Origin: a virus
IMG/VR virus record: IMGVR_UViG_3300033144_006696
Location: 32,001-96,000 of that record
Length of the DNA: 64,000 bases
Reading direction: 5' to 3' (one strand)
The notes below the pieces were generated by a model. That model ran no database searches and was not told where the DNA came from. It saw only the letters and a list, made by a program, of their open reading frames with translations. Every line of letters starts with the position of its first letter. Within the stretch, counting starts at the first letter, position 1. Both the position numbers and the translations under genes were made by a program. Positions 2,098 to 54,316 of the stretch are shown here, piece by piece.

Positions 2098-2164
2098 AAT
2101 AAGGGATAGGGTCGCTCCTGAAAGATGGTTTACTCAGCCATTTTCCCTTATTAAATTTTGAGTA
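2098..2164 (+). ncRNA. Structured leader, motif A copy 1 (three-way junction plus pseudoknot)
   Basis: P1 AATAAGGGA/TCCCTTATT; TAG; P2 (A)GG-(G)TCGCT-CC(T); GAAA; P3 GATGG/CCATT; loop TACTCA pairs with TGAGTA at 2159-2164. Confidence 0.65.
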
Positions 2165-2181
2165 TTAAATGGAGATTTAAA

Positions 2182-4035
2182 ATGGCGCCTAAATTGACAC
2201 TCTCTCAATTTATTCAAAAAGCAAATCAGGTACATAATTCAAATTATTCTTACGAAAAAACAACATACCAAAAATCTAATATTAAAACTACAGTAACCTG
2301 CAATGTTCATGGCAATTTTTCATTAACACCAAATAATCATTTGTCAGGAAAAGGATGTCCTGAATGTGCTTTAATTAAACGAGCAAATTCTTGTAAACTT
2401 ACTATTCAAGAATTTATTAAAAAAGCAAATAAAGTTCATTTAAACAAATATGATTATTCTAATTCAGTTTATTTGGGGATGGATAAAAAAATATCAATCA
2501 TTTGTCCCGTTTCTAATCATGGTGAATTTAGCCAATTAGCATGTAATCATGTTTTTGGAAAAGGATGTCCTAAATGCAAATCTGATAAAACATCTCTTCG
2601 TTGTAGACATTCAACAAAAGATTTTATCCGTAAAGCTAAAGAAATCCACGGAAATACTTATGATTATTCTATGGTTGATTATATAAGTGGTAAATTAAAA
2701 ATTAAAATTATCTGTAAAGAGCATGGTATTTTTGAACAAGTTCCACAAAGCCATTTGAGTGATAGTGGATGTCCAAAATGTGTTGGTTTTAATTCAACAT
2801 TTGAAGATTTTATTAGAGAAGCAAAATTAATTCACGGTGATAAATATGATTATTCATTAGTTAATGAGACATATAAAAATACTCGTGTAAAAATTCCAAT
2901 TATTTGTCCTGTCCATGGACAATTTTTCCAAACACCTTTTGTACATTTAAGAGGTAATGGTTGCAATTTATGTGGTTATGATACTACAGCGAAAAAGAGA
3001 ACATTAACTACTTCTGATTTTATAGAACGCTCAAAATTAATCCATAATAATTTCTATGATTATTCAAAATCAATATACATAAAGAATAAAACAGAAATTT
3101 CTATTTGCTGCCCTCTTCATGGATTATTTACTCAGTCTCCAAATAACCATCTTGCAGGAAAAGGATGTCCAAAATGTGTAGGTAGGATTTCAAAAGAAGA
3201 AATAGAAGTAGCTGATTTTTTGAAATCTTTAAATGTACAAGTACAAACATCAAACAAATCTATTCTTAATACAAAAGAATTGGATATTGTTCTTCCTGAT
3301 TTTAAAATTGCAGTAGAATATAATGGATTATATTGGCATTCTTCAGCAAGTCTAAGTTTTGGAAAATATAATCATTATAATAAAACTCAAGAATGTTTAG
3401 AAAAAGGGTATAGATTAGTTCATATTTTTAGTGATGATTGGAAGTTTAAAAAAGAAATAATTCAATCAATTTTATCTAATTTTGTGAATAAAACTCAAAT
3501 AAAATATTTTGCAAGAAAATGTATTTGTAAAAAAATACAAAAAGATTTAGCAGTAGAATTTCTTAATAAGAATCATCTTCAAGGATATGTTATAAGTTCT
3601 TTTCATTATGGTTTATTTTATAATGATAAACTTTTGCAAGTGATGTCTTTTAAAAAAGACAAACAAAATTTTAATTTAGTACGTCTTGCTGCTAAATTAA
3701 ATATTCAGGTAGTTGGTGGTGCAAATAAATTATTTAAACATTTTTGTAGAAATGAGGAATTTAAATCTGTTTTTACATTTGCTGATTTATATTTATTTAA
3801 TGGCCGTGTTTATGAACATCTTGGATTTAAGAAAATTAAAGAAATTCCAATTGATTACTCTTATGTGTATAAGGGAAAAAGAAAACATAAATTTGGTTTC
3901 AGAAGAAAACGTCTTAAAACATTATTGAATAATTTTGATGAAACTAAATCAGAATTATGGAATACTAGAAATAATGGAATTTACAGAATTTATGATTGTG
4001 GTAAAAATAAATATGAATTTGTAAAAAATACTTGA
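2182..4035 (+). CDS. Free-standing homing-endonuclease-like protein (five DUF723-like Zn-ribbon repeats, PD-(D/E)XK/Vsr-like nuclease, Hef-like C-terminus)
   Basis: Five CxxHGxF..P..HLxGxGCPxC repeats, then ELDIVLPDFKIAVEYNGLYWHS and GYRLVHIFSDDW; likely start ATG 2182 after GGAG. Confidence 0.75.
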   Translation: MAPKLTLSQFIQKANQVHNSNYSYEKTTYQKSNIKTTVTCNVHGNFSLTPNNHLSGKGCPECALIKRANSCKLTIQEFIKKANKVHLNKYDYSNSVYLGMDKKISIICPVSNHGEFSQLACNHVFGKGCPKCKSDKTSLRCRHSTKDFIRKAKEIHGNTYDYSMVDYISGKLKIKIICKEHGIFEQVPQSHLSDSGCPKCVGFNSTFEDFIREAKLIHGDKYDYSLVNETYKNTRVKIPIICPVHGQFFQTPFVHLRGNGCNLCGYDTTAKKRTLTTSDFIERSKLIHNNFYDYSKSIYIKNKTEISICCPLHGLFTQSPNNHLAGKGCPKCVGRISKEEIEVADFLKSLNVQVQTSNKSILNTKELDIVLPDFKIAVEYNGLYWHSSASLSFGKYNHYNKTQECLEKGYRLVHIFSDDWKFKKEIIQSILSNFVNKTQIKYFARKCICKKIQKDLAVEFLNKNHLQGYVISSFHYGLFYNDKLLQVMSFKKDKQNFNLVRLAAKLNIQVVGGANKLFKHFCRNEEFKSVFTFADLYLFNGRVYEHLGFKKIKEIPIDYSYVYKGKRKHKFGFRRKRLKTLLNNFDETKSELWNTRNNGIYRIYDCGKNKYEFVKNT

Positions 4036-4071
4036 CAAATGAATATTCTTTGTTTAGTGTAATGTTATATA

Positions 4072-4165
4072 GTGGTGTTTCTGGGAAACACCACATCAAT
4101 TTAGAAAAAGTCTTGGGGGCTACGATTACTTATTTTGTGAATAAGTAACTTAGTCCCTTTTTTTA
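4072..4165 (+). promoter_or_regulatory. Capsid leader: two YUGGG hairpins plus an overlapping intrinsic-terminator-like stem
   Basis: GTGGTGTTT-CTGGG-AAACACCAC (4072-4094), AGTC-TTGGG-GGCT (4109-4121); alternative stem GGGGCTA..TTACTTATT/AATAAGTAA..TAGTCCC followed by a T-run. Confidence 0.55.
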
Positions 4166-4206
4166 TGTAAAATATTTAATAAACAATTAAAGTAAGGAGA
4201 TTTATC

Positions 4207-5379
4207 ATGGCAGCAGGCGACAACATCTGGAGCCACCCTTCTATCATCGCGGCAGAGGCGTTAACACATCTCGAGGACGCACTTGTCATTGCACCACTTT
4301 GTGCTACAGACAAGACATCTGATTTTTCAAATAAAGCCAACGGTTGGAAAGTTGGTGATTCTGTTTCTTTTCGGACTCATGGTGAATATGAAGTTGATGA
4401 ATTTGCAACTACCATTAGCACACAGTCTATCGGAACCTCTACACGTCCCATGGAGATTGAAAAACATTTCGATATCTCTGTTGAAGTCGGTGCAAGAGAA
4501 TACTCTTTGGATCTGGATTCTTTTGTTGAACAGGTTATTCAGCCTGCAACATATAAACTGGCAGAAAGTGTTGACACTTATATAGGAACGAAAATCCTTG
4601 AAGCTGCTGGAGCTTATTACAGCACTGGTCTTTTTACAACTGCCGCTGACATTGCACTTGCCCGTAAAACTGCAACCATCCAGCAATTGGCAATGAATCG
4701 TTTTTGTCTTGTTGATTTGGATATTGAAGCAATTCTTCTTGGACAGACTTGGTTTAATCAGTCTAACTCTCGTGGCTCAGATGGTGAAATGACTCTTCGT
4801 AATGCAGATATGGGTCGTGTAATGGGTATGGATTTCTTTTCCAGTATCGCTTTTCCTACTGAAACTGCTGATTATACTGTGGGTACATTTATTGGTGTAA
4901 CTAATAATACCACTGCAACCAAAAACTTGATTGGTGATTCTCTTTTGATTGTTGATGGTGTTGCAGCTTCCCAGTTTACCCTTGTTGCTGGTGATCGTCT
5001 GTATATTCCTGGTGTCCGTCGTCCTCTAAAAGTTAAAACTGCTGTTGGGGATACTGACGCAACTACTTCAATTGTCCTGGTTGATCCTATTACTGAAATT
5101 ATTCCTGATGATACTGCTGTAACTGTTATTGCTTCTGGAAAAGATGTTCAACATCATGGTGTAATTATGGATGATCGTTCTCTTGCTGTTGCATTTCCTA
5201 TGCTTGATCTTCCTGAAGATCGTGTTGCTGCTACTGCGTCCAATAATGGCATTAGTATTCGTATCGTTAAAGGGTATGATTTGAGTTCCAAGAAAACTAC
5301 GATGTCCCTGGATCTTCTATGTGGTGCTTTTGCTCTTGATCCTCGTCGAATGACTCTTGTTGGTGATAAATCTTCTTAA
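4207..5379 (+). CDS. Major capsid protein (P22 coat-like, HK97 fold)
   Basis: 390 aa after the scaffold, strong SD AAGGAG; IIAAEALTHLEDALV N-terminus and GISIRIVKGYD..KKTTMSLDLLCG C-terminus typical of P22-type coats. Confidence 0.85.
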   Translation: MAAGDNIWSHPSIIAAEALTHLEDALVIAPLCATDKTSDFSNKANGWKVGDSVSFRTHGEYEVDEFATTISTQSIGTSTRPMEIEKHFDISVEVGAREYSLDLDSFVEQVIQPATYKLAESVDTYIGTKILEAAGAYYSTGLFTTAADIALARKTATIQQLAMNRFCLVDLDIEAILLGQTWFNQSNSRGSDGEMTLRNADMGRVMGMDFFSSIAFPTETADYTVGTFIGVTNNTTATKNLIGDSLLIVDGVAASQFTLVAGDRLYIPGVRRPLKVKTAVGDTDATTSIVLVDPITEIIPDDTAVTVIASGKDVQHHGVIMDDRSLAVAFPMLDLPEDRVAATASNNGISIRIVKGYDLSSKKTTMSLDLLCGAFALDPRRMTLVGDKSS

Positions 5380-5426
5380 TTTTTTGAATAGAGTAAAATT
5401 TTAATTCTAAATAAAAGGAAATAATT

Positions 5427-5615
5427 ATGAAGGTTTATGATAAAGAAGGAAAAGTTGTGAATGCAGATAAGAATCAAATTGAGATTCTTATGAATGCAGG
5501 ATGGACTAAAACTAAACCAGAACTTATTATTAAGGAAGAGCTTAAAAAGGATACTGTAGTCAAAGCAATTCCTAAAGTAAAGAAATCCATAAGAAAAATT
5601 TCCTCTAAAGTATAA
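5427..5615 (+). CDS. Small hypothetical head-associated protein
   Basis: 62-aa ORF with SD between capsid and adaptor genes. Confidence 0.55.
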   Translation: MKVYDKEGKVVNADKNQIEILMNAGWTKTKPELIIKEELKKDTVVKAIPKVKKSIRKISSKV

Positions 5616-5624
5616 GGGGGAATT

Positions 5625-6134
5625 ATGGCTTTAATTGCTACATTAGGTGCTACTGATGCAAATTCATACGTTAACAGAGCTGAGGCTGATCTCTACTTTG
5701 CAGATCGAATGCATTCCTCTACTTGGACAGCATTAACAGATGCGGTGAAAGATCAATTATTGATAACTTCTTCTCGTATGTTAGATTGGCATGTTAAATG
5801 GAAGGGCACAAAGACTGAAGACACTCAAGCAATGCAGCACCCAAGGGAGGATATGCTTCGTCCAGATGGAACTGAAATTGATGATGGTGTTCTTGCTCCT
5901 GAAGTTAAAATTGCTGTGTATGAATTAGCTCTTGTGAATATTACATCAGATAGAATGATTGATGATCCTTTAGCTGGAATAGGTCAATTAAAAGCTGGTT
6001 CTTTAATGATTAAAGCTGGCCCTGAAAAGCCAAACCAAACCAACGCTAAACCAGTGCCCTCACATATATATTCAATATTATCAGATTTGTATGTGCAGGG
6101 CAGAGGAAGTATAGTTAGATTATTAAGGGCATAA
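5625..6134 (+). CDS. Head-tail adaptor (DnaT-like family)
   Basis: ANSYVNRAEADLYFADR...W...LLITSSRMLD motif and position after the capsid gene. Confidence 0.75.
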   Translation: MALIATLGATDANSYVNRAEADLYFADRMHSSTWTALTDAVKDQLLITSSRMLDWHVKWKGTKTEDTQAMQHPREDMLRPDGTEIDDGVLAPEVKIAVYELALVNITSDRMIDDPLAGIGQLKAGSLMIKAGPEKPNQTNAKPVPSHIYSILSDLYVQGRGSIVRLLRA

Positions 6135-6135
6135 A

Positions 6136-6498
6136 ATGGCAAATCTTAGAAATACATTCTTATCTGGTCTTGAAACTATCTTCAATGTAATGAATGAAGC
6201 AGTTAAAACTGGAATATATACTGTTGAAGAAGATGATGGGTTTAATAATTCTGTCATCACTTCTGATGTTGTTAGATGTATTTTTGAGAATTTTTCTGAA
6301 AAAGATATTCATGATCTTTCTTTTTATGAATTAATTCAACCCAAAGATATTAAAGGATTAATACCATTTGTTGATTTAGTTAATTGTGAAATTACAACTC
6401 AAGCTTCTATCATGTTTGGAACTGAAAAATATATGGTAGAAGCTTATGATGTTGATCCAATGAGTGTTGTTTTTACAACCCTTTTGAGGAAAGTTTAA
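6136..6498 (+). CDS. Putative head-closure protein
   Basis: 120 aa, synteny; beta-rich C-terminus ending in TTLLRKV. Confidence 0.55.
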   Translation: MANLRNTFLSGLETIFNVMNEAVKTGIYTVEEDDGFNNSVITSDVVRCIFENFSEKDIHDLSFYELIQPKDIKGLIPFVDLVNCEITTQASIMFGTEKYMVEAYDVDPMSVVFTTLLRKV

Positions 6499-6499
6499 T

Positions 6500-7003
6500 A
6501 TGAATTTAAACGAAATTATCAAAGGATTGGCTAAAATTACAGAGGGATCAGCTATCAAAGCTAATGTTTCTCGTCTTTTATACAAAAAAGATAATGAATT
6601 AATTGATTTGTTAAAAGAGCATTCACCATACGACCCGGAACACAAAGATCCTCATTTTCGGGATCAATGGAAAGCATCAAGAAAAAAGTACGGCAATTCA
6701 AAAGTTCTGGCTCAGATTATTGTTTCCAATAGTACACCAATATATGGACAATTTTTAGTAGCTGGTGCAGAACTTAATCAAGCTCCTTGGTATTATCCTA
6801 ATAGGATTCGTAAAGGTAAGAAAAAGGGTCAGTTTAAGAAAGGTACTGGAAAACTTACAAAAGTTCAAGGTAAAGTTTGGGCTGGTGGATTAGATCCAGG
6901 TCATATTAAAACAGTTGGAGGTCCAATTGCGCAAGTTTTAACAAAATTTATTGATAAATTTACACAAGAAGTATCTGATGAATTTGTGAAGGGGTTCTTC
7001 TAA
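6500..7003 (+). CDS. Putative neck/tail-completion protein (HK97 gp10-like)
   Basis: Basic protein, SPYD..HFRDQW..IIVSNSTPIYG pattern, synteny. Confidence 0.55.
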   Translation: MNLNEIIKGLAKITEGSAIKANVSRLLYKKDNELIDLLKEHSPYDPEHKDPHFRDQWKASRKKYGNSKVLAQIIVSNSTPIYGQFLVAGAELNQAPWYYPNRIRKGKKKGQFKKGTGKLTKVQGKVWAGGLDPGHIKTVGGPIAQVLTKFIDKFTQEVSDEFVKGFF

Positions 7004-7503
7004 TGGGTATTCAAGGTATTCAAGCATTTTTGAATGTTATCTGTGCAGGAGATAACAATAGAGAAGATGCTTTACAAGAAATATATGAACGCATTAAAGT
7101 AAAAAGGATTTCTTTGGGTCTTACTTCTTTTAAAAGGACTCCAACTGAACCAATAGTTGAAAAAGATATGCCTTGTGTGTTTATGCTTGAAGGTCCTGAT
7201 AATATTATTGAATATTCCAGCAGGGGTAATATGGGATATCCTGTTAGAAGAACTTTAGAAGTTACTTTAGAATTAGTAACCAATTCCAATATAGATATTA
7301 AATCTAAATTGAGAGATTTAAGAAAAGCTGTTTTTGCTGAAAGGGATATTGATCCTCCTGTTTATAATCCAAGATTAGTAGATGTTGGACAAACTGGGTT
7401 TATTAGTGAAAATAGAACTGAGGGTCCTTCAGGATATGGTTTACAAGATATTTTAGGAATGTCTCTTGTGCTTGATTTGGTATATACAGATGATATTATC
7501 TGA
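7003..7503 (+). CDS. Putative tail terminator
   Basis: Synteny before tail tube; DMPCVFMLEG motif resembles tail terminators. Confidence 0.55.
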   Translation: MGIQGIQAFLNVICAGDNNREDALQEIYERIKVKRISLGLTSFKRTPTEPIVEKDMPCVFMLEGPDNIIEYSSRGNMGYPVRRTLEVTLELVTNSNIDIKSKLRDLRKAVFAERDIDPPVYNPRLVDVGQTGFISENRTEGPSGYGLQDILGMSLVLDLVYTDDII

Positions 7504-7581
7504 TTTTAGGAAGGTTTAAAATGGTAAATACTTCAAACAATTATAGTCTTCTCCTAATTTTTGTGATATACTAATGCAAAC

Positions 7582-7649
7582 TACAGTGGATAGGATCGCA
7601 TCCGAAAAGTGGCATCTCAACCACCCCTCCACTGTACTTCTTTTTGAGA
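7582..7649 (+). ncRNA. Structured leader, motif A copy 2
   Basis: P1 TACAGTGGA/TCCACTGTA; TAG; P2 GGAT-CGC-ATCC; GAAAA; P3 GTGG/CCAC; loop TCTCAA pairs with TTGAGA at 7644-7649; extended -10 TGaTATACT just upstream. Confidence 0.65.
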
Positions 7650-7675
7650 ATATTGCTATGAGAGGTAATATTAAT

Positions 7676-8191
7676 ATGATTTACAAAGATTTGCCAAGAG
7701 CTGATTATCTTAGATCCATTTTTAATTACAACAAAAAGACTGGAAAATTAATCTGGAAAAAGAAAACTGCTAATTGTGTTAAGATTGGAACTGAGGCAGG
7801 GTTTGTATCAGGCAGAACTGGAAGATTGCAAGTTTCTATAAAAGGTGAAGTTTTTTATGTTCCAAGAATTATTTGGAAAATGGTAAAAGGCAGAATTCCA
7901 AATTATAAACAAATTGATCATGATGATAGAAATCCTCTTAATAATGCTTGGGATAATTTGTCTTTGAAAACCCAGTCAGAAAATATGAAAAATTCTTCAC
8001 TTCAACGTAATAACACATCAGGTATTGTTGGTGTAAATTTTCATAAATTTTCTGGGTTATGGAAAGGTAGTATTTCTAATAATAAGAAAATAGAAACAGT
8101 ATATTTTAAAACCATGGATGAAGCCATAGATTGGAGGAGAAGCAAAGAAAGAGAGTATGGATTTCATAAGAACCATGGAAAGACTTTCTAA
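7676..8191 (+). CDS. HNH homing endonuclease with AP2-like C-terminal domain
   Basis: QIDHDDRNPLNNAWDNL HNH motif; NNTSGIVGVNFHKFSGLWKG AP2-like segment; likely start ATG 7676 (the ORF-track start 7574 runs through the RNA leader). Confidence 0.8.
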   Translation: MIYKDLPRADYLRSIFNYNKKTGKLIWKKKTANCVKIGTEAGFVSGRTGRLQVSIKGEVFYVPRIIWKMVKGRIPNYKQIDHDDRNPLNNAWDNLSLKTQSENMKNSSLQRNNTSGIVGVNFHKFSGLWKGSISNNKKIETVYFKTMDEAIDWRRSKEREYGFHKNHGKTF

Positions 8192-8214
8192 CAATAATTA
8201 TAGGAGATTTAATC

Positions 8215-9231
8215 ATGGCAGTAAGTCCAAATACTGACAATTATAGCCTCGGGAAAGGAGTGGTGTATTTTGATCAGCTTGTTTCTAGTGTCTATCAAGG
8301 AGAAAGGGATCTTGGTAATGCGCCCTCTTTCACATTTAATATTGCACTTGAAACACTTGAGCATTTCAGCTCACGAGGTGGTTTGAAAGCGAAAGATAAG
8401 AGTATTATTTCTCAGATCACTCCAGGTCTGGCATTCACTCTTGATGAAGTTAACAAAGAAAATATGGCATTGCTCACATTGGGCGATACCACTACTGTTA
8501 CACAAACTGCTGGATCTATAGTGGCTGAAGTTGTTACAGCACACATGGACAAACGAGTAGATCTTGATTATCGTGGAATTGAGAATTGGAATCTTACTTA
8601 TGATTCAGGTACAGTTATCTTTGTTGTTGGTGAGGTTGTTACTGGTGCTGGTGGTGCAACTGGTGTTGTTCTTTCTGTTACAGGAACTTCTGTCGCAGGT
8701 ACTTTGGTAATTGCAAAAACAAATGCAACTTTGTTTGTTACTGCTGAAGCTATTACTGGTTCCGGTACTGGTGCAGCATCTGTGACTACTGCAATTCCCA
8801 CTTTATCAACAACTCCTGTTATGCTTGTTCAAGATTCTGCCGATACAGTTACTTACGTTGCTGGGACTGATTATGAAATCTCAACAACTTTGAGTGATGA
8901 TGATATTGGACGAATTAAGTTTATTGGGAGTACCATTACTGAAAGTGATGAAATTCATATTACTTATGGCCATGCAGCACTCACGTATACAAACATTGCA
9001 GCCTTTGCAAACACACAGATCATTGGAAAACTCAGGTTTGTTTCTGATAATCCCGCTGGTAATCAGCAGGAACTGGAAGCATGGAGTGTTTCTCTTGTAC
9101 CTGCTGGGGATACTGCCATGATTGGTGACGATTGGTCTACTCTCCAATTTAATGGTGAAATTTTGAAAGACGAAACAAATCACCCACTTACTCCGTATAT
9201 GAATATCATTATGGATCAATCTCTCACATAA
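8215..9231 (+). CDS. Major tail tube protein
   Basis: YSLGKGVVYF..DLGNAPSFTF..ETLEHFSSRGG and IGKLRFVSDNPAG..GDDWSTLQFNGE motifs of siphophage tail tubes; Thr/Gly-rich inserted domain. Confidence 0.8.
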   Translation: MAVSPNTDNYSLGKGVVYFDQLVSSVYQGERDLGNAPSFTFNIALETLEHFSSRGGLKAKDKSIISQITPGLAFTLDEVNKENMALLTLGDTTTVTQTAGSIVAEVVTAHMDKRVDLDYRGIENWNLTYDSGTVIFVVGEVVTGAGGATGVVLSVTGTSVAGTLVIAKTNATLFVTAEAITGSGTGAASVTTAIPTLSTTPVMLVQDSADTVTYVAGTDYEISTTLSDDDIGRIKFIGSTITESDEIHITYGHAALTYTNIAAFANTQIIGKLRFVSDNPAGNQQELEAWSVSLVPAGDTAMIGDDWSTLQFNGEILKDETNHPLTPYMNIIMDQSLT

Positions 9232-9240
9232 TTTATAATA

Positions 9241-9275
9241 GGTATAGAGCAGTACGTAACGTACTGCTCTATACC
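9241..9275. terminator. Perfect 16-bp hairpin between convergent genes
   Basis: GGTATAGAGCAGTACG-TAA-CGTACTGCTCTATACC. Confidence 0.7.
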
Positions 9276-9281
9276 TATATA

Positions 9282-10092: not shown

Positions 10093-10144
10093 GTTTTCTC
10101 CTTTTATAAATGTAATTGATATGTGTGTTAATTAACATACGACT

Positions 10145-10173
10145 AACGTACACTAAATTATATCGTTTGTCAA
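10145..10173 (-). promoter_or_regulatory. sigma70-type promoter of the RHH-nuclease cassette
   Basis: TTGACA-N17-TACGTT on the minus strand. Confidence 0.55.
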
Positions 10174-11033: not shown

Positions 11034-11048
11034 GTAAAGGAAATTGAT

Positions 11049-40088: not shown

Positions 40089-40154
40089 ATGGCAACGTAT
40101 TTTATCAGGTTGCGTATATGAAAATAAATCCATATCCAATAAAATAGTTGCCAT
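40089..40154 (-). promoter_or_regulatory. Hairpin leader, motif B copy 1
   Basis: ATGGCAAC..TATTTTAT..ATATG/CATAT..ATAAAATA..GTTGCCAT, then TTTTATTTTTGGAG and ATG. Confidence 0.55.
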
Positions 40155-40184
40155 GTATATTCACAGATTGTCCCTTGACGCAAC

Positions 40185-40364
40185 TCAAAGTTAAGATCAA
40201 TATATCATAAGTTATATAAAGAATCAAGAATATTCAATATAAGCATATACTCAAAACCGGAATACTCCTCTGATCTGCAATAAATGCTCTTAATAGACTT
40301 GATAAGCTTAATGTACATTTTTCTGAATCAATCACAATTCATCAAAGTTAAGATCAATATATCA
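40185..40364. repeat. 23-nt direct repeat pair
   Basis: tcaaagttaagatcaatatatca at 40185-40207 and 40342-40364. Confidence 0.8.
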
Positions 40365-40717
40365 CATCTTGATAAATTTGCAAATATAATCTTTGAAATT
40401 AAACTCAATTGATCAATTTTAGCTTATTTAACGATGATAAAAGTCAAATTAGATGCAATACTCTCATTGTTTTGTAATCAAAGCGAAATGAGCAAAGATT
40501 GATCTTGATGTGCAATGAATAATCTTGAATCTGCAAAGATCAAGGATTTTTAATTCAACAAAGAATCTTATTGCAATCAAAGCGAAGCTCCTTTCCCAGC
40601 AAACTTGCACAAGCAAGTTGTATAGAGTTGTAATCTTATGTTGTTGTGTATGATGTAATCATACTTAAATAATAACTTGTTATTGTTTATCAACATAAGA
40701 GTACAGCTCTTTCTATA

Positions 40718-40768
40718 GTTAGACATCTGTGTCGCACTATATTTGTCAGAGACACAGATGTCTAACTA
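40718..40768. repeat. 17-bp inverted repeat just downstream of the wHTH gene
   Basis: AGTTAGACATCTGTGTC ... GACACAGATGTCTAACT. Confidence 0.8.
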
Positions 40769-40775
40769 TATAAGT

Positions 40776-41439
40776 TTAAATATTTATTCTTAATTTCCTG
40801 AAACGACCATCAAAATATATTTCCTCAATTAATCCTTTGTTCATAAGCTTGATTCTATTTCGTTGAATTGTTTTAGAAACACATGAAAGCAATTCAGCAG
40901 CTCTTGTATCAGATAATCCTGTAATACCTCCCTCAGAACCATTAGAAGCTTTATTTGGTGTTGTTGAATATGCTTTATACAACATAAGTAAAACTAATTC
41001 TATCGGACTTAATTTTTCTTCATCTTTTTTTATTCTGAATTAATTCTTCAAATATATTTCTTCTCATGGTAAATTCTCCTGTGGAATTTTTCCAGTATAT
41101 GCAAGATTTCAAAGCATAGGCTCCACATAATTTTAATTCTAACAAAATATCATGATATGGAATACCATTATTTCTGATGAATTTTTTAAACATAATATAT
41201 TGGTATTCAAAATCAGCAGATATTTTTGTAATTCCATATTTTAAAATTACAGAATAATTTATTGATTCAGTTTCACGTTCAACAATAATATTGAAATCTT
41301 TGCAGACTTCCCTTAACTCTTGTAATGGATTTTTTGTTCTGAAGAAATTTGAATCCACAAATCTAAGCTCTTTGTGGTTTTTATTTTGGATTCTTTCGTA
41401 ATAGAGATCTTCTTTGGAGGGAATTTTCTTGTTAAACAT
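40776..41439 (-). pseudogene. Winged-HTH (Rep-like) protein split by a +1 frameshift
   Basis: Removing one A from A7 at 41015-41021 gives IQNKKDEEKLSPIELVLLMLYKAY..TRAAELLSCVSKTIQRNRIKLMNKGLI (HTH), fusing ORFs 41020-41457 and 40776-40985. Confidence 0.6.
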
Positions 41440-41449
41440 AATTTTACCT

Positions 41450-41543
41450 TTTGCCACAAGTAGCCATAAATGAATGTGGGAAAAGAGAATGGCAAATTCT
41501 CAGTTCAATACAAGGAGCAACCCTTATATCTATCCCCACAATT
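41450..41543 (-). ncRNA. Structured leader, motif A copy 3
   Basis: P1 TGTGGGGA/TTCCCACA; TAG; P2 ATATAAGG-GTTGCT-CCTTGTAT; TGAAC; P3 GAGAAT/ATTCTC; loop TTGCC pairs with GGCAA next to the SD. Confidence 0.6.
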
Positions 41544-41606
41544 TTGGATGACTAAGTATAACAGAAGGTAAAATTTGAAGCAAGATTATTTTTAAAATGT
41601 TTGAAT

Positions 41607-41635
41607 ATAATAGAAAATTAATACAAGAAAGTCAA
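41607..41635 (-). promoter_or_regulatory. sigma70-type promoter
   Basis: TTGACT-N17-TATTAT on the minus strand, upstream of motif A copy 3. Confidence 0.6.
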
Positions 41636-45436: not shown

Positions 45437-45446
45437 AAATTTCTCC

Positions 45447-46806: not shown

Positions 46807-46850
46807 TTTGAATACAACTCCTTATTCTGTAATATCTATTAATTTAATAG

Positions 46851-47456: not shown

Positions 47457-47701
47457 TAATCATTTTCCAATAAATTCTGGTATTTCTTTTTAAAAGCACT
47501 TTTACCTTTAGCATAATGTGCCTCCATTTTTTCAACTTCTTTTTTCTTGATAGTAAGAGCTGTATTTGCTTCAGTTTTTGAATTAAAACCTAAATTTCCA
47601 AGTTCTTCAATAATCATACTTTTCCTACCCAATAGTTTGTCACGCAGTTTTTCTTTGTTTTTTATAATTTCTGACATTTTTATTAAGTCAACTTCTGGCA
47701 T
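47456..47701 (-). CDS. Small coiled-coil protein inside the split Rad50 locus
   Basis: 81-aa helical ORF coupled to the SbcC C-half. Confidence 0.6.
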   Translation of the reverse strand: MPEVDLIKMSEIIKNKEKLRDKLLGRKSMIIEELGNLGFNSKTEANTALTIKKKEVEKMEAHYAKGKSAFKKKYQNLLEND

Positions 47702-47716
47702 TTTTATCTCCTATTT

Positions 47717-48631: not shown

Positions 48632-48669
48632 GTTATTTTCTCCTTTTAATCTGTAATTTCATCAAAGAA

Positions 48670-48885
48670 TCATAACTTATATTTTTCAACATTTTCAACA
48701 TCAAGAGCTTTTTCATAACACTCACACATATTACAATCATATTCAGTTAATTTATATTTACACCAATAAATATTTGGAGGAAATTTTATGTTTTGTATAT
48801 TTTTAGTATATGTACAAAAAGGTTCTGCAATTGTACTGCATTTGCGATTTGCATTATATGTACAAGTTAAATATTTATTTTTCAT
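48670..48885 (-). CDS. Small Cys-rich protein
   Basis: Six Cys in 71 aa. Confidence 0.45.
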   Translation of the reverse strand: MKNKYLTCTYNANRKCSTIAEPFCTYTKNIQNIKFPPNIYWCKYKLTEYDCNMCECYEKALDVENVEKYKL

Positions 48886-48914
48886 TATATTACTTCTTTT
48901 GTTAATTTCATATT

Positions 48915-50141
48915 CTATCCTTTACGCCCGCAGACAGGGCAAGCTTGATTAATCCATATTTCTTTGTATGTTATTTCTTCCTCATTCAAAGTTTTAATCA
49001 CCCATTCAAGATCTTTTTTATTTGTACTAAATTTTTCCAGAACTGCTTCAATTTTTTCAATTTCATCCTTATATTTTGTAATTTCAGTTTGTTTAAAATC
49101 AAGCTGTTTTAAAGCTGTTGCTGCTTCAGTGATATCAGTAGTAGCATTCAATTGTGTATTAACGTCATTCAGTGTGATAATCAAGTTAAATAGAGTATTA
49201 TATGCTGATTTTTTATCAAAGATTGTTTGATTATATTTTTTAAGTTTTTTAATTTCTAAATTCACTTGAACCAAATAATCATAATGTGTTAATTTATTAT
49301 CTACTTTATTTAGCTCATCAAGAACATTATTGAGTTTTTTATATTCAGAAGATTTAATTGCTAATTGCTTTTGTTTTGTTTTCAATTCATTAATTTCTTT
49401 AACAGCTTCATCAACCATTAAATATTCAGCAATCTCAAGATCTACTTTATTTATTTCATAAATTACAGAATCTAATTCATCACATATCTCTTGTTTATTC
49501 ATTATCTTGAATTCAATATCTTCAAGTTTTGATGCCATTTTTTTAGCGAAATCAACCCATTCCGTATTTTCTATCTCTTCTAATCTTGTATCAATTTCAA
49601 GTTTGGACACTTTTATTAAAGTATTACAGGATCTGACTTGTGAATTTATGTTTTGTATAGCTTTATCCATTACAACAAGTCCAGCAACTTTATTGAACTC
49701 TTTTGCAATTTGTCCAGGTTTGTCACCAATTAGAAAATATTGATCACTGGGATGTTGAGTCTGTATATTTACATCTTTTATTCTGGTAATTTCTTGAACT
49801 TCATCAGGAACATCTGATTTTAAAGCTCTTAAAGGCTCTCCATCATTTATCTCATAATGATTAACTCCGCCTGAAGCTCCATCTCTTGCTCGTAAAATAT
49901 TTTTTTTATCATATTTTATATTTACTTCTGTTAATTTAAGTTTATCCTTTTTTGAATCACTTAATGAATCACTTCTATAACTATCTCCTTGTGGACGATT
50001 ATGTGCATTCCATTTTATTGCTCTAATTATACTGGACTTTCCGTTGTCACTCTCACCAACCAGAACATTACAGCCAGAATGTAATTCAATATGTGTATCT
50101 TTATGAGATTCAAAATTTTTGATTGATATGGAATTTATCAT
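48915..50141 (-). CDS. Rad50/SbcC N-terminal half ending at the zinc hook
   Basis: Walker A GESDNGKS, Q-loop NIQTQH, long coiled coil, terminal CPVC. Confidence 0.88.
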   Translation of the reverse strand: MINSISIKNFESHKDTHIELHSGCNVLVGESDNGKSSIIRAIKWNAHNRPQGDSYRSDSLSDSKKDKLKLTEVNIKYDKKNILRARDGASGGVNHYEINDGEPLRALKSDVPDEVQEITRIKDVNIQTQHPSDQYFLIGDKPGQIAKEFNKVAGLVVMDKAIQNINSQVRSCNTLIKVSKLEIDTRLEEIENTEWVDFAKKMASKLEDIEFKIMNKQEICDELDSVIYEINKVDLEIAEYLMVDEAVKEINELKTKQKQLAIKSSEYKKLNNVLDELNKVDNKLTHYDYLVQVNLEIKKLKKYNQTIFDKKSAYNTLFNLIITLNDVNTQLNATTDITEAATALKQLDFKQTEITKYKDEIEKIEAVLEKFSTNKKDLEWVIKTLNEEEITYKEIWINQACPVCGRKG

Positions 50142-50152
50142 TTTGAATCCTT

Positions 50153-50455
50153 TTATTTTCTTTTTACATAAATTGTTGGCACATGACCTTGTGCATTTTC
50201 AATTTTTAAATAAAGACCTTTTTGATCAACAATAATATCACTTATTCTTTTCAACATCTCTTGTTGTGTGACGAAATTATTATCATGATTATATATCGGA
50301 ACTGACATATTAAAATTTAATGAATGTTCAATAAATGCAATTGCCATCAAATATGTTCTTCCTGAACCTCTTTGTCCCATTGGATTAGTCAACCATTTAA
50401 CTGCTTCATAATACTTGAATTGATTTTTACATAAATTTATTGAAAATGGTTTCAT
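50153..50455 (-). CDS. Hypothetical protein
   Basis: RGSGRTYLMA P-loop-like segment; coupled ORF. Confidence 0.45.
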   Translation of the reverse strand: MKPFSINLCKNQFKYYEAVKWLTNPMGQRGSGRTYLMAIAFIEHSLNFNMSVPIYNHDNNFVTQQEMLKRISDIIVDQKGLYLKIENAQGHVPTIYVKRK

Positions 50456-50824
50456 TTATTTACCTTTTAATAATTCTATCGATGCACTCTTTATATTAAT
50501 TATCATTTTGCCGCTGATAGATGTCACGAAGGGAATATCAGTGATTGGAAATTCAAGGACTATTATTGAATCTTCTGGTAATTGTATTTTACCTTGATCT
50601 TCTAAGCCAACCATTTTATCTGGAATCATTCCTGGCAGGGCTTTTAATTCTATCAATTCGTCCACATCATCAGGATTTAAATCAGTTGGTACTTCATACT
50701 CCTTGTAATTATCTTCTTTGTTAGCCGTACATAAATACCAATCCATATCTCCATCTATTTCTTCCTCACTCACCCATGATCCATCGGGCCAGACCATAAT
50801 AATTATGTGATTTTTATCAGTCAT
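50456..50824 (-). CDS. Hypothetical protein
   Basis: SD GGAG; WPDGSW..EY motif. Confidence 0.5.
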   Translation of the reverse strand: MTDKNHIIIMVWPDGSWVSEEEIDGDMDWYLCTANKEDNYKEYEVPTDLNPDDVDELIELKALPGMIPDKMVGLEDQGKIQLPEDSIIVLEFPITDIPFVTSISGKMIINIKSASIELLKGK

Positions 50825-50834
50825 TTTATCTCCA

Positions 50835-51281
50835 TTAATTATTTAATTTTTGCCATTCTTCCTGAAAATTACGACCAATCATAAAATCAACATAGATTGA
50901 ATTATCTTGACGGAGATAATAATCAACAACATTTTTTAGATTCAATATTAATTCTTTTGGATATATTGTTTTTGTTTCTTCAAGAAAACTGATGCAGAAG
51001 AGAACAATACTTGAAATATGAATATCTTCTTTCTTTTGATTATCTTTGGACATTATTTGATTGAATTTTTTCAGGTAAATTTCAATTTCTTTTTTATTTT
51101 GGATAAAGATATTATTATCTCTTGCAAACATACCATTGAGTTGATTAGTGACAAAGAAGTCAATATTTTGGAGTTTTGTTCTTAATCTTCCAGGTTTTAA
51201 TGGTTCTTTTAAAAAAGACTGAAGAGACTTTAGAATACCTAACTCTGATAGTGTAACAAGTGTATTATGTGAAGCTTTCAA
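50835..51281 (-). CDS. Hypothetical protein
   Basis: 148-aa ORF. Confidence 0.45.
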   Translation of the reverse strand: MKASHNTLVTLSELGILKSLQSFLKEPLKPGRLRTKLQNIDFFVTNQLNGMFARDNNIFIQNKKEIEIYLKKFNQIMSKDNQKKEDIHISSIVLFCISFLEETKTIYPKELILNLKNVVDYYLRQDNSIYVDFMIGRNFQEEWQKLNN

Positions 51282-51295
51282 AATAAATCTCCTTT

Positions 51296-52033
51296 TTATA
51301 ATGGATATCTTTTCCGCATGGAAAGAACATCATTTCTTATTTTTTCTTTAATATCATAAAAATTTGTAAATAAACAAGAATAACTTTGCATTGCACTTTC
51401 TCCACAATTATATGATGTAGTTCCTTTGCCTGGATGCGATATTCCTTTGTTCAAATCAACATCAATTCTTGTAATAGAAGACTTAGGAACATACCATCTA
51501 CGTATTCTCGTGAATTCTTCAATAATGTATTTAGCTTTGTAATCTCCTTCTGGCATTGCTATTGTTAAATTACCAGAAGATATAATTTCTTTGACCGTTT
51601 TATAATCACCAAGAAAGAAATCAATAAGATTAAAATTCCAAGAATGCTTGAATGTACTTCCTTTACTATATCCACATTCATCACAGAACCAAGAAAACCA
51701 AATAGTCCAATCAAATATCCTGACATTAGTTGTTAATCCATTGTATATCTGTTTTTTATGGAACCAATTTCTGATTTTCTTTGTAAATATACTCTCATAC
51801 ACAAAATAAAATCTACCTATAATTGGAAGACTTAGATTACATTGAAAATCTTCTTCTTCATCCCCGATGGTAAATCCAATTGAGCAATGAATCCCGCCAA
51901 AATGCCATTCAGTTCTAAACTCTTGCTGGTTTTTTCGTCCTAATCTTAACCAGCATCTACCAGCTTTAAGCATTGATTTTTTATCAAGCACTTGTGAATG
52001 AAAATGATAAATTGGTTCACTTAAATTTTTCAT
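51296..52033 (-). CDS. Hypothetical phage protein
   Basis: 245-aa Trp-rich ORF; IAMPEGDY..PGKGTTSYNCGE. Confidence 0.55.
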   Translation of the reverse strand: MKNLSEPIYHFHSQVLDKKSMLKAGRCWLRLGRKNQQEFRTEWHFGGIHCSIGFTIGDEEEDFQCNLSLPIIGRFYFVYESIFTKKIRNWFHKKQIYNGLTTNVRIFDWTIWFSWFCDECGYSKGSTFKHSWNFNLIDFFLGDYKTVKEIISSGNLTIAMPEGDYKAKYIIEEFTRIRRWYVPKSSITRIDVDLNKGISHPGKGTTSYNCGESAMQSYSCLFTNFYDIKEKIRNDVLSMRKRYPL

Positions 52034-52238
52034 TTCTTTTCCTCAATCTCACCAAAAAATTCATTTAGTTCTGGATCATCAACATCAATATACAATAAGT
52101 CAAAAAATCACAAGAATTATTAGTTAGCCCAATAACATGTTCATAGTGATCACTACCATGTCTATTCGTAACTGTTGGTGCTATGTAAAAAATCGTACCC
52201 TTTGGAATTATAATATCTTTCTTTAGTATTTTTGGCAT
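52030..52238 (-). pseudogene. Small ORF with a 2-nt (AT) insertion
   Basis: MPKILKKDIIIPKGTIF..LTYC then shifted frame IDVDDPELNEFFGEIEEKK*, whose stop overlaps the next ATG; length 3n+2. Confidence 0.45.
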
Positions 52239-52262
52239 TTGTATTTGCTCCTTTATTTTAAA

Positions 52263-52883
52263 TTAAATTTTCTTTCGTTTTCTTTTTCGTAATTTGTTAT
52301 TTGCTTTAAAAACAGCATTTGCAAATCCTTCGGGGGTAGTACTTCTTATCTCAACCCTTTCTGGAGTATTAGGAAGCAAATGCATTTTACTACCTTGTGT
52401 TGGTTCAACCTCGTTCTTGATAGGCATTATGAAACCACCGCCAGTCCATAAACATGTTCTTTTTTTATATGGATCACCATACATGTATGGATGAAAAGTG
52501 TAATTTGGTTTTCTCCAATATGTGCTTATTGTACTTACAGGATTTTCAATGTAATATGGTGCTTCGCACCATTCTGCAATTTTAATTGAAACTTCAAATA
52601 ATTTTAATGCATTAATCAAAGCACCAATACCTTTATCTTTGAACCATCTTGCTCCAGATACTGCTACATCTGTACATGGAGGATAGAATGCTGCAAATTT
52701 AATATTGCCTTTTGGGGGTAACCAATTTAGCATATCTGCGCCAACTTTTATTATATTTCCTTCTTTATGCTCTCCTTTAGTATGTTGTATATCAACACAA
52801 TAACAAAAATAACCAGCATCAGCCCATGGTTTTGCTCCAATAGTGGATTTATCAAAACAACTGATCATTACAGGTCTACTCAT
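52263..52883 (-). CDS. Dcm-like C5 cytosine methyltransferase family protein
   Basis: FYPPCTDVAVSGARWF (PC motif IV), YIENPVS (ENx motif VI), KRTCLWT, RSTTPEGFANA. Confidence 0.65.
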   Translation of the reverse strand: MSRPVMISCFDKSTIGAKPWADAGYFCYCVDIQHTKGEHKEGNIIKVGADMLNWLPPKGNIKFAAFYPPCTDVAVSGARWFKDKGIGALINALKLFEVSIKIAEWCEAPYYIENPVSTISTYWRKPNYTFHPYMYGDPYKKRTCLWTGGGFIMPIKNEVEPTQGSKMHLLPNTPERVEIRSTTPEGFANAVFKANNKLRKRKRKKI

Positions 52884-53056
52884 CTTTTAAATCTCTCTTT
52901 TAGTAATTTTCTATTTTTATGCAATTCCAAAAGTAATTCTTGAATTGCATTTTTATTTTCATCATTTGTTAAATGCTCATTACCTTTTAATTCAAGAAAA
53001 AGAGAATCAGATAAACGATCACATAATAGAATCATTTTATTTATGGTTTCGTTCAT
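52880..53056 (-). CDS. Small hypothetical protein (58 aa)
   Basis: Open frame coupled at both ends by ATGA overlaps. Confidence 0.45.
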   Translation of the reverse strand: MNETINKMILLCDRLSDSLFLELKGNEHLTNDENKNAIQELLLELHKNRKLLKERFKR

Positions 53057-53247
53057 TTGGCATCATCTCTTGTTGATTCTACTCTTTTCAGATTTGATTC
53101 TTTACAGTCTTTATTCCAAAGTCTTGACTTGCATTGAGGGCACGCAATTGGCTTTTTAGTTCTTGGCAGCCATTTATGATTGCATCTTTTGCAGGTTAAT
53201 TCAATAAACACTTCATTAAACACTTCACGCACTTTTTGATCTTTCAT
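53053..53247 (-). CDS. Zn-ribbon protein
   Basis: CKRCNHKWLPR..PIACPQCKSRLWN. Confidence 0.6.
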   Translation of the reverse strand: MKDQKVREVFNEVFIELTCKRCNHKWLPRTKKPIACPQCKSRLWNKDCKESNLKRVESTRDDAK

Positions 53248-53263
53248 TTAATAAGTTTTCCTT

Positions 53264-54034
53264 TTATTTGTATTTTTCTTTCAATCTATTACAAAAATAA
53301 ATCTGACCTAAAGGAGTAATCATTACTCTCTTTGATAATCTGACACCAAATAATGTGTTATAAGTGGTTTCTATTACATTGAAAAAGCCTTTTTCTAACA
53401 TATTTTGGTAGGGTAAATTGTTATCCATGATATATTTCTGAGTTCTCATCCATTTATAAAGACGATTCCTGCCAATACCTAAATGTTGATCTTTAACGAG
53501 TTTGGCAAATGTTTCAAAATCAATTGCATCATTAGAATTAGAAACTTGTTCTGCAAATTCTACAAGTGGTTTATCATTCTTGATTTTCTCCTCTAATGTT
53601 ATTGCTTTCTTTTCTGCTTTATAATAAGCTTCTAATAATTCTAATTTAGTTCTTGGTTGAATTGAATATGATCCTGTTTTCCTAATTGTAGGTAAAACTT
53701 CTGTTTTTATCCATTTTTTGAAAGCTTTTGCTTTGGGCATTTTACTACCAAAAATTGCCTCATATAATCCTGATTCATTTATAACTGTTTGATTTCTATA
53801 CTGATTTGAGCTGACATTCCGTAACGGCGTGTTAGCTTTTTCATCTTTATCAAGTCTTTTAGTCATTTTATTTGTGCCAGAATATTCTAAAATATCTGCA
53901 ATCTCTTTGGCAATAAACCAAGCTTCTCCGTCTTTTTCAAGAACAGTAAGTTTTCCAAATTCATTATTTTTGAAAATTGTTAATTCTGAATTTTTATTTA
54001 CTTTAATTTTTTCAATTCGTTGTAATTTTTTCAT
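53264..54034 (-). CDS. Bro-N + KilA-C/ANT antirepressor-like protein
   Basis: AWFIAKEIADILEY..VINESGLYEAIFGSKMPKAKAFKKWI..VLPTIRKTGSY; KPLVEFAEQV..GRNRLYKWMR..ITPLGQ. Confidence 0.88.
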   Translation of the reverse strand: MKKLQRIEKIKVNKNSELTIFKNNEFGKLTVLEKDGEAWFIAKEIADILEYSGTNKMTKRLDKDEKANTPLRNVSSNQYRNQTVINESGLYEAIFGSKMPKAKAFKKWIKTEVLPTIRKTGSYSIQPRTKLELLEAYYKAEKKAITLEEKIKNDKPLVEFAEQVSNSNDAIDFETFAKLVKDQHLGIGRNRLYKWMRTQKYIMDNNLPYQNMLEKGFFNVIETTYNTLFGVRLSKRVMITPLGQIYFCNRLKEKYK

Positions 54035-54070
54035 TCTTACTCCTTTATAATTAATGTTGAAAATACAGTA

Positions 54071-54099
54071 TCATGATAAAGAAGCAATGTCAATTTATT
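54071..54099 (-). promoter_or_regulatory. sigma70-type promoter of the Bro-ANT gene
   Basis: TTGACA-N17-TACTGT with TG extension. Confidence 0.6.
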
Positions 54100-54129
54100 A
54101 TTTTTTCATTGATTTGAGTCGATTTTATA

Positions 54130-54158
54130 TTGACTTTTTCACTTGATTATCATAATAT
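54130..54158 (+). promoter_or_regulatory. Divergent sigma70-type promoter
   Basis: TTGACT-N17-TAATAT upstream of motif A copy 4. Confidence 0.5.
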
Positions 54159-54224
54159 GATTTCTCAATAAAATAAATAACTTGCTTCATAATAATATCT
54201 CTGTTACACTTCAGTCATTCAAAT

Positions 54225-54316
54225 TGTGGGAATAGATTCAGCCTTATAACCTGAATTGAAAATCGGCTTTGTTAACCGACCTTCCCACATCTTTTTAATG
54301 ACACACCGTAACAAAG
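54225..54316 (+). ncRNA. Structured leader, motif A copy 4
   Basis: P1 TGTGGGAA/TTCCCACA; TAG; P2 ATTCAG/CTGAAT; TGAAA; P3 TCGG/CCGA; loop CTTTGTTA pairs with TAACAAAG (54309-54316) at the SD. Confidence 0.65.

Follow-up and report, generated by a model that had tools for sequence, protein, structure and literature searches.

The int-alpA RNA motif (Rfam RF02996) comes from a 224-motif survey (PMC5737381). Our literature search found no functional study of the family, and the one mention that it gave outside the original survey lists int-alpA among putative small RNAs in E. coli genomes. The Rfam consensus runs P1 (8 base pairs, bp), UA, P2, GAAAA, P3 (loop AaaCCuUua), CU, P1', a U-rich spacer and AgGG. 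Here we analyse a set of RNA leaders in an IMG/VR phage record of 123,866 bp, IMGVR_UViG_3300033144_006696. Four copies lie in the 64-kb stretch that was studied as a whole (the window, bases 32001-96000 of the record; G+C 31%), and a fifth lies outside it in the same phage genome, at genome positions 116441-116506. Our comparisons suggest that two of the copies are canonical int-alpA RNAs and that the other three form a variant of the family. We propose, with a probability of about 0.55, that the element is a cis-acting, two-state (bistable) translational switch, in which the P3 loop would choose between two complementary sites downstream.

Parts of this design are known from other RNAs. In translational riboswitches with a Shine-Dalgarno pseudoknot, such as preQ1-II and SAM-II, and likewise in the predicted fold of int-alpA, a compact aptamer-like structure has a loop or 3'-tail pairing that includes or abuts the ribosome-binding site. 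int-alpA differs from both in having no metabolic gene association and few nucleotides that are invariant family-wide. The lambda cIII mRNA is, like int-alpA as proposed here, a phage leader with two folds that expose or hide the initiation region with no dedicated ligand; in contrast to int-alpA it is a single-gene feature and not a mobile conserved module, and the two have no sequence or structural homology. T4-type homing endonucleases (I-TevI, I-TevII/III, segB, mobE) are regulated by RNA structures ahead of the gene that occlude the Shine-Dalgarno sequence, with a logic based on promoter position (PMC2988022). Promoter position may similarly decide, according to our predictions, whether an inhibitory fold forms in copies 3-5 of the phage studied here. 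However, the T4-type structures are simple, lineage-specific hairpins lacking a conserved core, whereas int-alpA has a conserved three-way junction, a predicted pseudoknot, a putative decoy site and hosts of many phyla.

Further information about the identity of the leaders was obtained by searching the genome directly with RF02996. Copy 2 scored 36.0 bits, above the family gathering score of 35.8, and copies 1, 3, 4 and 5 gave no match at E<=10. A preliminary description of the window had presented the RNA as a candidate new system that could not be assigned to a named family. Neither statement holds, but the loss of novelty is partial, as the named family is functionally uncharacterised. A cmscan of the whole 64-kb window at the Rfam gathering threshold reported no family, copy 2 included. 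We attribute this silence to speed filters, which lose borderline members, and thus take it as a miss in sensitivity and not as absence of the element. A permissive Rfam scan around copy 1 returned noise only.

From the 20-nucleotide (nt) core of copies 1 and 2 we derived a pattern, GGATAGGRTCGCNYCYGAAA, which was present in 93 viral contigs, where about 6 would be expected by chance on a rough estimate, and the full architecture, with differing P1 and P3 sequences, was present in nearly all of them. When 8 of these loci were compared with Rfam, 5 scored above the RF02996 gathering score and 2 more just below it; further members of the set reach 37-57 bits. We then used a covariance model, R2, built from 52 distinct viral sequences, none of them from the window; those sampled mostly pass RF02996. 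R2 recovered copy 1 with 63.1 bits (E 3e-13) and copy 2 with 46.5 bits (E 4e-9). Its match to copy 3 was weak (13.5 bits, E 0.69), yet it ran over the full length, the long P2 being taken as an insertion. A second covariance model, R1, was built from copies 3-5 and found copy 1 with 24-26 bits (E 4e-4 to 7e-5).

All five copies have the RF02996 architecture, P1, UA(G), P2, GAAA(A), P3, 0-3 nt and P1', the order of parts in Rfam being that of the preliminary description. Copies and family share a P1 of about 8 bp, a short P2, a P3 with a loop of 7-10 nt and a downstream strand complementary to that loop. This complement, the predicted pseudoknot strand, follows shortly after P1' in copies 1, 2, 3 and 5 (5-7 bp) and is weak in copy 4. 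In contrast, the Rfam model ends at this proximal site, and the Rfam entry as viewed holds neither the distal Shine-Dalgarno site, nor the link to homing endonucleases, nor the cassette behaviour reported below. No int or alpA gene adjoins the local copies; the 69 viral downstream genes include a single integrase, and Phage_AlpA is absent from the 25 most frequent families listed. The name reflects an association, not a structural criterion. From these sequence comparisons we regard copies 1 and 2 as very probably canonical int-alpA members. Copies 3-5 are probably a lineage-specific int-alpA variant with a lengthened P2 and an outer stem, P0, because they have the family architecture, R1 matches copy 1 and the P2 tip of copy 3 is canonical. 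The local novelty is limited to three additional members, the long-P2/P0 variant and observations relevant to function.

The preliminary description proved accurate in position and architecture. The four window copies sit where it had placed them and its stems are correctly quoted. In addition, all four minimum-free-energy folds give the same three-way junction, with the parts in the order P1-UAG-P2-GAA-P3-P1'. The junction UAG, said to be invariant, is so in all five copies, and the P2 core AGG-GU(C/U)GCU-CCU is indeed common to copies 1 and 3. The GAAA that was called nearly invariant is kept as GAA in every copy, but the next base is A or C. A descriptor that required a P1 of 6 bp or more, then TAG, a first hairpin, GAA, a second hairpin and P1', run over the 123,866-bp genome returned copies 2, 3 and 4, one chance match in a coding region and the fifth copy. 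Copy 1 was missed because its P2 has just 2-3 pairs, and was recovered by the covariance models.

Folding of single sequences gave modest z-scores for the four window copies (-1.5 to -2.6). Once relatives are included, the RNA structure is far beyond chance. In an alignment of 52 distinct homologues made by MAFFT, in which structure was not used, 88.7% of the cells can pair against 62.8% in shuffles, and 216 cells are changed on both sides against 70. The covariation score was 0.635 and that of shuffled alignments 0.169, none of 500 shuffles reaching the observed value. Shifting the partners by 1-3 columns lowered pairing to 36-55%. Double changes occur in 6 of the 8 pairs of P1 and in all 4 pairs of P3, and covariation in the wider alignment is strong in both stems. 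Of the 93 viral loci, 88 have an open reading frame (ORF) on the same strand about 20-90 nt downstream. This constant orientation, together with G-U pairs on the strand of the element, suggests that the RNA is read on that strand.

When downstream regions were aligned, the complement of the P3 loop was usually found twice, as in UUCGGA...UUCGGAgg, AACAGGA...AACAGGA, UUGCGGA...UUGCGGAgg and GUGAUG...UGAUGGGG. We scored the best and the second-best non-overlapping loop complement of each member in its own downstream region; as control, loops were dealt to the downstream regions of other members, which keeps the Shine-Dalgarno-like composition. Among 68 viral members the best complement scored 8.05 against 5.35 in the control (standard deviation 0.21), and the second-best 5.90 against 3.71 (standard deviation 0.21). 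Examined afterwards, 37 distinct bacterial members gave 8.80 against 6.22 for the best and 7.04 against 4.73 for the second-best complement, and none of 300 permutations reached the observed values. The proximal site begins 5-12 nt and the distal site 18-28 nt past P1', and most members have both. For 43 members out of 65, a start codon opening an ORF of at least 45 codons comes 3-13 nt after the end of the distal site, which is thus the Shine-Dalgarno sequence there. Median duplex energies were -8.9 kcal/mol for the proximal and -7.5 kcal/mol for the distal site, against -3.7 and -5.0 kcal/mol in controls. The two-site design is also seen in RF02996 members with quite different P2 sequences and in Salmonella phage Jersey, in which AACCA occurs after P1' and again beside AAGGG. 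In the phage studied here, copies 2-5 have a Shine-Dalgarno complement to the P3 loop. The preliminary description had recognised one pseudoknot strand per copy and placed it at or just before the Shine-Dalgarno sequence. The strand does lie at or beside it, but corresponds to the proximal site for copies 1 and 2, and for copies 3 and 4 to the distal one. CsrA-type GGA sites were considered as the reason for the duplicated sites and dropped, many site pairs having no GGA.

The control also bears on whether the element acts in trans. As a small RNA, it would use P1 and the U-rich tract as a terminator, leaving an RNA of about 65 nt whose C/U-rich loop would target the ribosome-binding sites of other mRNAs. 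The Rfam type ('sRNA', small RNA), the U-run after P1' in the consensus and the resemblance of the loop consensus AaaCCuUua to an anti-Shine-Dalgarno seed would suit this role. However, the U-run is absent in G+C-rich members, for which reason an intrinsic-terminator reading was also set aside, and loops fit the sites downstream in the same member better than those of another. Moreover, a same-strand gene almost always follows, and the five local loops differ, each being matched in cis. We think that action in trans is highly improbable.

A second complement would also be superfluous if the element were a passive 5' stabiliser or translation enhancer, protecting the transcript from 5'-end-dependent decay or keeping the ribosome-binding site clear, with no switching. 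The junction with its loop-to-3'-tail pseudoknot has the topology of exonuclease-resistant viral RNAs, the element begins within about 15 nt of the predicted transcription start, and the genes behind it include highly expressed late genes in addition to nucleases, all of which would be expected of a stabiliser. Such a role needs just the proximal pseudoknot and leaves unaccounted for a second, Shine-Dalgarno complement that is significant in two independent sets, so we give it very little credence.

The core is distributed widely but sporadically. Among bacteria it was found in 56 species, with one genome per species, which belong to more than ten phyla, namely Proteobacteria, Desulfobacterota, Acidobacteriota, Planctomycetota, Bacteroidota, Firmicutes, Nitrospinota, Methylomirabilota, Chloroflexota, Gemmatimonadota and Saccharibacteria. 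Within groups its occurrence is sporadic, as illustrated by 3 of 141 sampled Enterobacterales species. Cultured phages with the core include about 300 Jersey-like Salmonella phages, where it is located in a divergent intergenic region, ahead of two small genes preceding the tape-measure gene (in phage Jersey, upstream of Jersey_26), and the Rhizobium phage RHph_X2_25, where it lies ahead of a Seg-like homing endonuclease. About 40% of the viral downstream genes are homing-endonuclease-like: among 69 distinct viral downstream proteins we counted 16 HNH_3, 9 NUMOD4, 3 HNH, 3 HNH_5, 2 GIY-YIG and 3 DUF4379-type matches (family counts overlap). The others include methylases, a tail-tube clade, TnpB, an integrase and SieB. 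Most of the genes that follow the core in bacterial genomes are orphans.

A loop that can pair with either of two sites but not with both at once, where one site is the ribosome-binding site, has the anatomy of a translational switch. We hypothesize that the junction, conserved in the G-C pairs that close P1, in UA(G) and in GAAA, would hold P3 in place for loop pairing downstream. Pairing of the loop with the proximal site would close the pseudoknot and leave the ribosome-binding site free, and pairing with the distal site, in most cases the Shine-Dalgarno sequence, would block initiation. In this way the leader could set the dose of a potentially harmful or tightly dosed product. Loop and site sequences differ in every copy, giving five different pairs in this genome, and the junction is constant. 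Each loop would thus be matched to its own sites only, and the junction would be the common part that sets or senses the state. As the same core is present in hosts of more than ten phyla, its input should be universal, and a phage-specific protein is unlikely. Candidate inputs would be a small molecule, an ion or a core host factor such as the ribosome, and likewise temperature and folding kinetics.

In copies 3-5 a further layer of control can be envisaged. The predicted proximal transcription start falls inside the 5' strand of P0, and P0 could occupy the proximal site. P0 would then form in long read-through transcripts and shift the loop onto the Shine-Dalgarno sequence, keeping these transcripts silent, while short transcripts from the proximal promoter would be active.

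A more specific version of the switch is a true riboswitch, in which a small molecule or ion would bind the junction and stabilise the proximal pseudoknot or the alternative fold, making translation of the cassette gene follow a cellular signal. Its appeal lies in a core of about 20 nt that hardly varies between elements of more than ten bacterial phyla, in a compact RNA with a junction and a pseudoknot reaching the Shine-Dalgarno sequence, and in two near-isoenergetic alternative pairings that would suit an expression platform. Nevertheless, the constants that hold family-wide are just UA, GAAA and the closing pairs, P2 varying in sequence and in length. This leaves little for a ligand pocket, and we therefore consider a classical riboswitch unlikely. 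Furthermore, the nucleases, methylases, tail proteins and orphans downstream point to no metabolite, no Rfam riboswitch model matches and the literature search found no report of a ligand. It is tempting, as a speculation of similarly low probability, to propose that the junction senses a universal signal (a metabolite, a nucleotide messenger, an ion or a core factor such as the ribosome) and flips the P3 loop between decoy and Shine-Dalgarno sequence to gate selfish and accessory genes.

The shape of the junction also raised the question of RNA cleavage. A self-cleaving ribozyme or a processing site for a host RNase could free the mRNA of the cassette, act as an insulator and leave a defined, structured 5' end, a plausible need for cassettes that are mobile and inserted into operons. 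The element has in common with type I hammerhead topology a three-way junction, GAAA between the second and third stems and 0-1 nt between P3 and P1', and hammerheads, too, are common in phage-like DNA. However, only the GAAA is present: the CUGANGA strand (core CUGAUGA) is missing, the corresponding junction being just UA(G), type-B members have G at the H position of the cleavage site, and no Rfam hammerhead or other ribozyme model matches. The hammerhead was thus set aside. As to processing, P1 and P3 are continuous on the 3' strand and preceded by UA-G, like the acceptor/T-arm stack of a tRNA. This likeness is limited to the acceptor-like P1 and UA-G. ARAGORN finds no tRNA gene in the window, the P2 loop has 5 nt, and the P3 loop, being variable and complementary to downstream sequence, is no T-loop; a tRNA-like element was set aside as well. 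Cleavage would moreover leave the second complement, the one overlapping the Shine-Dalgarno sequence, unexplained, and we judge either form of it improbable. A genuine tRNA-Phe (L002:5392-5466) also matched the pattern of copies 3-5. We take this match as coincidental, since the P1-UAG of the pattern mimics the acceptor stem followed by U8-A9-G10, and the anticodon loop supplies UGAA.

Several observations weigh against a two-state translational switch. Copies 4 and 5 were found by neither R2 nor RF02996. The proximal duplex is the more stable one in 42 of the 68 members, so that the switch would mostly be 'on' with no input. In the tail-tube clade (L013-like) the real Shine-Dalgarno sequence comes about 20 nt after both sites, and in copy 1 and its close relatives the distal complement is poor, at just 3 bp; occlusion of the ribosome-binding site would thus not hold for every member. 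Ordinary late structural genes, namely tail-tube genes and the Jersey tail operon, are also headed by the family, which fits poorly with a role limited to damping toxic genes. Finally, a general pairing of sequences upstream of P1 with the proximal site was rejected (mean -6.16 kcal/mol against -6.25 kcal/mol in the control), so the P0 logic is confined to three paralogous copies that barely vary.

The link between leader and mobile genes can be followed in relatives of the phage. Using the major head protein we found 41 related loci (L282-L322), 39 of which show both the scaffold and the capsid gene. In 5 of the 39 the scaffold-capsid gap measures 1.75-2.0 kb and holds a homologous endonuclease, with the leader at its 5' edge and an extended -10 ahead. 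About 31 have a gap of around 200 bp with neither endonuclease nor leader, and two (L285 and L321) have other insertions at the same site, without leader. Leader and endonuclease are thus present or absent together, and we conclude that promoter, leader and endonuclease move as one unit. This agrees with the preliminary description, in which a portable RNA module travelled with selfish cassettes: the element lies in a 5' untranslated region with an ORF downstream on the same strand, and it is gained or lost jointly with the endonuclease. As regards copy number, eight loci of the tail-tube clade (L013, L034, L059, L066, L071-L073 and L075) have a second, weaker copy (25 bits with R2) about 1.3 kb downstream, and L030 and L031 carry two copies each, so several copies per phage are common.

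The phage itself appears to have no close cultured relative, judging from a megablast search in which 12 kb of the window found no match among cultured phages and from a DNA ligase that is about 30% identical to those of known phages. All copies are 5' leaders in self-contained cassettes for expression, made up of promoter, leader and gene. Predicted promoter-like sites immediately precede all five copies. TTGACT-N17 sites, which the preliminary description had assigned to three copies, are found ahead of copies 1, 3 and 4; an extended -10 (TGnTAyACT) can be read directly ahead of copies 2-5, and a related TTGCTT-spacer-TGTTA motif ahead of copies 3-5. Behind the leaders are two free-standing homing endonucleases, both in the structural operon, and three small orphan proteins. 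The four genes of the window are unrelated, as had been claimed, but copies 3-5 are paralogous leaders and not independent acquisitions.

Copy 1 (core 2098-2152, plus strand) follows a promoter-like TTGACT-N17-TATAGT at 2049-2077 (plus strand), a consensus match only, at 10 of 12 positions. Its P1 is AAUAAGGGA / UCCCUUAUU, with the junction UAG, P2 GGUCGCUCC, the junction UGAAA and a P3 whose loop is UUUACUCAG. The proximal site UUGAGUA (2158-2164, plus strand) is complementary to the P3 loop, and the Shine-Dalgarno sequence GGAG lies at 2171-2174 on the same strand. The gene that follows (2182-4035, plus strand) encodes a free-standing homing endonuclease of 617 amino acids and is an insertion with the head scaffolding gene (1242-2021) on one side and the major head gene (4207-5379) on the other. 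Its earlier designation as a nuclease is supported by matches to phrog_559/3339 and DUF4379/MTES_1575.

Copy 2 (core 7582-7636, plus strand) lies just behind an extended -10-like sequence read as TGATATACT (7564-7572, plus strand). It consists of P1 UACAGUGGA / UCCACUGUA, the junction UAG, P2 GAUCGCAUC, the junction CGAAAA and P3 GUGG-CAUCUCAA-CCAC. Both sites are on the plus strand: the proximal UUGAGA (7644-7649) is complementary to the P3 loop, and the distal UGAGAGG (7659-7665) is itself the Shine-Dalgarno sequence of the gene starting at 7676. This gene (7676-8191, plus strand) lies directly upstream of the major tail gene (8215-9231) and encodes an HNH endonuclease of 171 amino acids, the nuclease call being borne out by HNH_3/phrog_99 matches.

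Copies 3-5 have a common layout. A promoter-like block CTTGCTTC is followed by a spacer and TGTTAyACT, then by the outer stem P0 (GUCAU/AUGAC), which appears in the minimum-free-energy folds, and by an almost identical P1. Their P2 (6-9 bp) and P3 differ in sequence and preserve pairing. Copy 3 is on the minus strand. A distal promoter-like TTGACT-N17-TATTAT (41607-41635) lies ahead of it, and its proximal extended -10-like TGTTATACT (41548-41563) overlaps the 5' strand of P0 (UUAGUCAU), a block that is conserved in copies 4 and 5. The core (41475-41541) has P1 UUGUGGGGA / UUCCCACA(A), the junctions UAG and UGAAC, a P2 of 9 bp and P3 GAGAA-UUUGCCA-UUCUC. The tip of this P2, GGGUUGCUCC, keeps the canonical sequence, differing by one base from GGGUCGCUCC. 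The proximal site AUGGC(UA) (41461-41467) is able to pair with the P3 loop (GCCAU) or with the 5' strand of P0; the distal site UGGCAAA is fused to the Shine-Dalgarno AAGG (41447-41456), and the start codon is at 41439. The gene (41020-41439, minus strand) encodes a protein of 139 amino acids with no family match.

Copy 4 is on the plus strand. It is preceded by a distal promoter-like TTGACT-N17-TAATAT (54130-54158) and by a proximal extended -10-like TGTTACACT followed by the P0 5' strand GUCAUU (54202-54219). The core (54225-54289) comprises P1 UGUGGGAA / UUCCCACA, the junctions UAG and UGAAAA, P2 AUUCAG...CUGAAU and P3 UCGG-CUUUGUUAA-CCGA, and the 3' strand of P0, AAUGAC, lies at 54297-54302, where the proximal loop complement is weak. 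The distal site UAACAAAG (54309-54319) can form 8 bp with the P3 loop and overlaps the Shine-Dalgarno AAGGUG, ahead of the start codon at 54325. The gene (54325-54939, plus strand) encodes an orphan protein of 204 amino acids, possibly bearing a helix-turn-helix (HTH). Copy 5 has a near-identical TTGACT-type site 520 nt ahead, a proximal site UGACGG and a distal site GGCGGGA; its orphan protein is encoded at genome positions 116540-117109 (L004:2541-3107). The proteins behind copies 4 and 5 are paralogues (36-39% identity), and their cassettes are therefore diverged duplicates in which the leader skeleton was held constant.

The long-P2 variant was not found beyond this phage genome. The exact-P1 pattern of copies 3-5 found no copy in viral contigs, a looser long-P2 pattern gave only chance matches there, none passing the structural filter among the matches listed, and R1 found no long-P2 copy in the 41 related loci. 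The exact-P1 pattern also matched a plain inverted repeat in the viral contigs.

The winged HTH proposed in the preliminary description for the proteins of copies 3 and 4 could not be confirmed, there being no Pfam or PHROG match. An atlas search gave no domain hints for the copy 3 protein and weak HTH/RepL-like hints (up to 0.90) for that of copy 4. An AlphaFold model made in the course of the orphan-protein searches had a pLDDT (predicted local distance difference test) of 38.5, and was thus too poor for a fold search. Relatives of the copy-4/copy-5 protein were found neither in viral contigs nor in cultured phages, and among 5.8 billion clustered proteins there was one homologue. In this protein pair a helix-helix-beta-hairpin is predicted near residues 112-160.

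Other structures were noticed next to the gene of copy 3. Window positions 40096-41019, about 900 bp, hold no ORF of at least 80 amino acids. They contain two exact 23-nt direct repeats (TCAAAGTTAAGATCAATATATCA) 157 nt apart, a pair of 16-nt repeats 99 nt apart and, at 40711-40773, a near-perfect inverted repeat of 23 bp. The region could be an origin, an iteron region or a regulatory hub. At 40624-40710 (plus strand) a 20-bp inverted repeat encloses two hairpins in a long-stemmed three-way junction, which scores 19 bits with R1 and may be a separate structured RNA. The weak R1 matches at 40637-40697 and 176-233 have no UAG/GAA junction and were judged to be due to chance or to a different element.

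In summary, int-alpA has been an orphan structured RNA in Rfam for years, and the two-site hypothesis offers a concrete mechanism for it. With respect to the Rfam model as viewed, the additions are the wide distribution, the link to homing endonucleases and cassettes, and the complementarity of the loop to two sites. The setting, with cassettes gained and lost in the gaps between essential phage genes, leads one to ask how the invaders can be expressed without harming their carrier, and cultured carriers exist in the Jersey-like Salmonella phages and the Rhizobium phage. A core that is near-identical across more than ten phyla implies a universal reader of the junction. Provided that the switch works in the way proposed, it would be a compact and naturally orthogonal part for translational control, with five loop/site pairs in one genome. 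Should the junction indeed sense a universal signal, mobile cassettes in hosts of more than ten phyla would carry a portable, orthogonal and condition-dependent expression switch.

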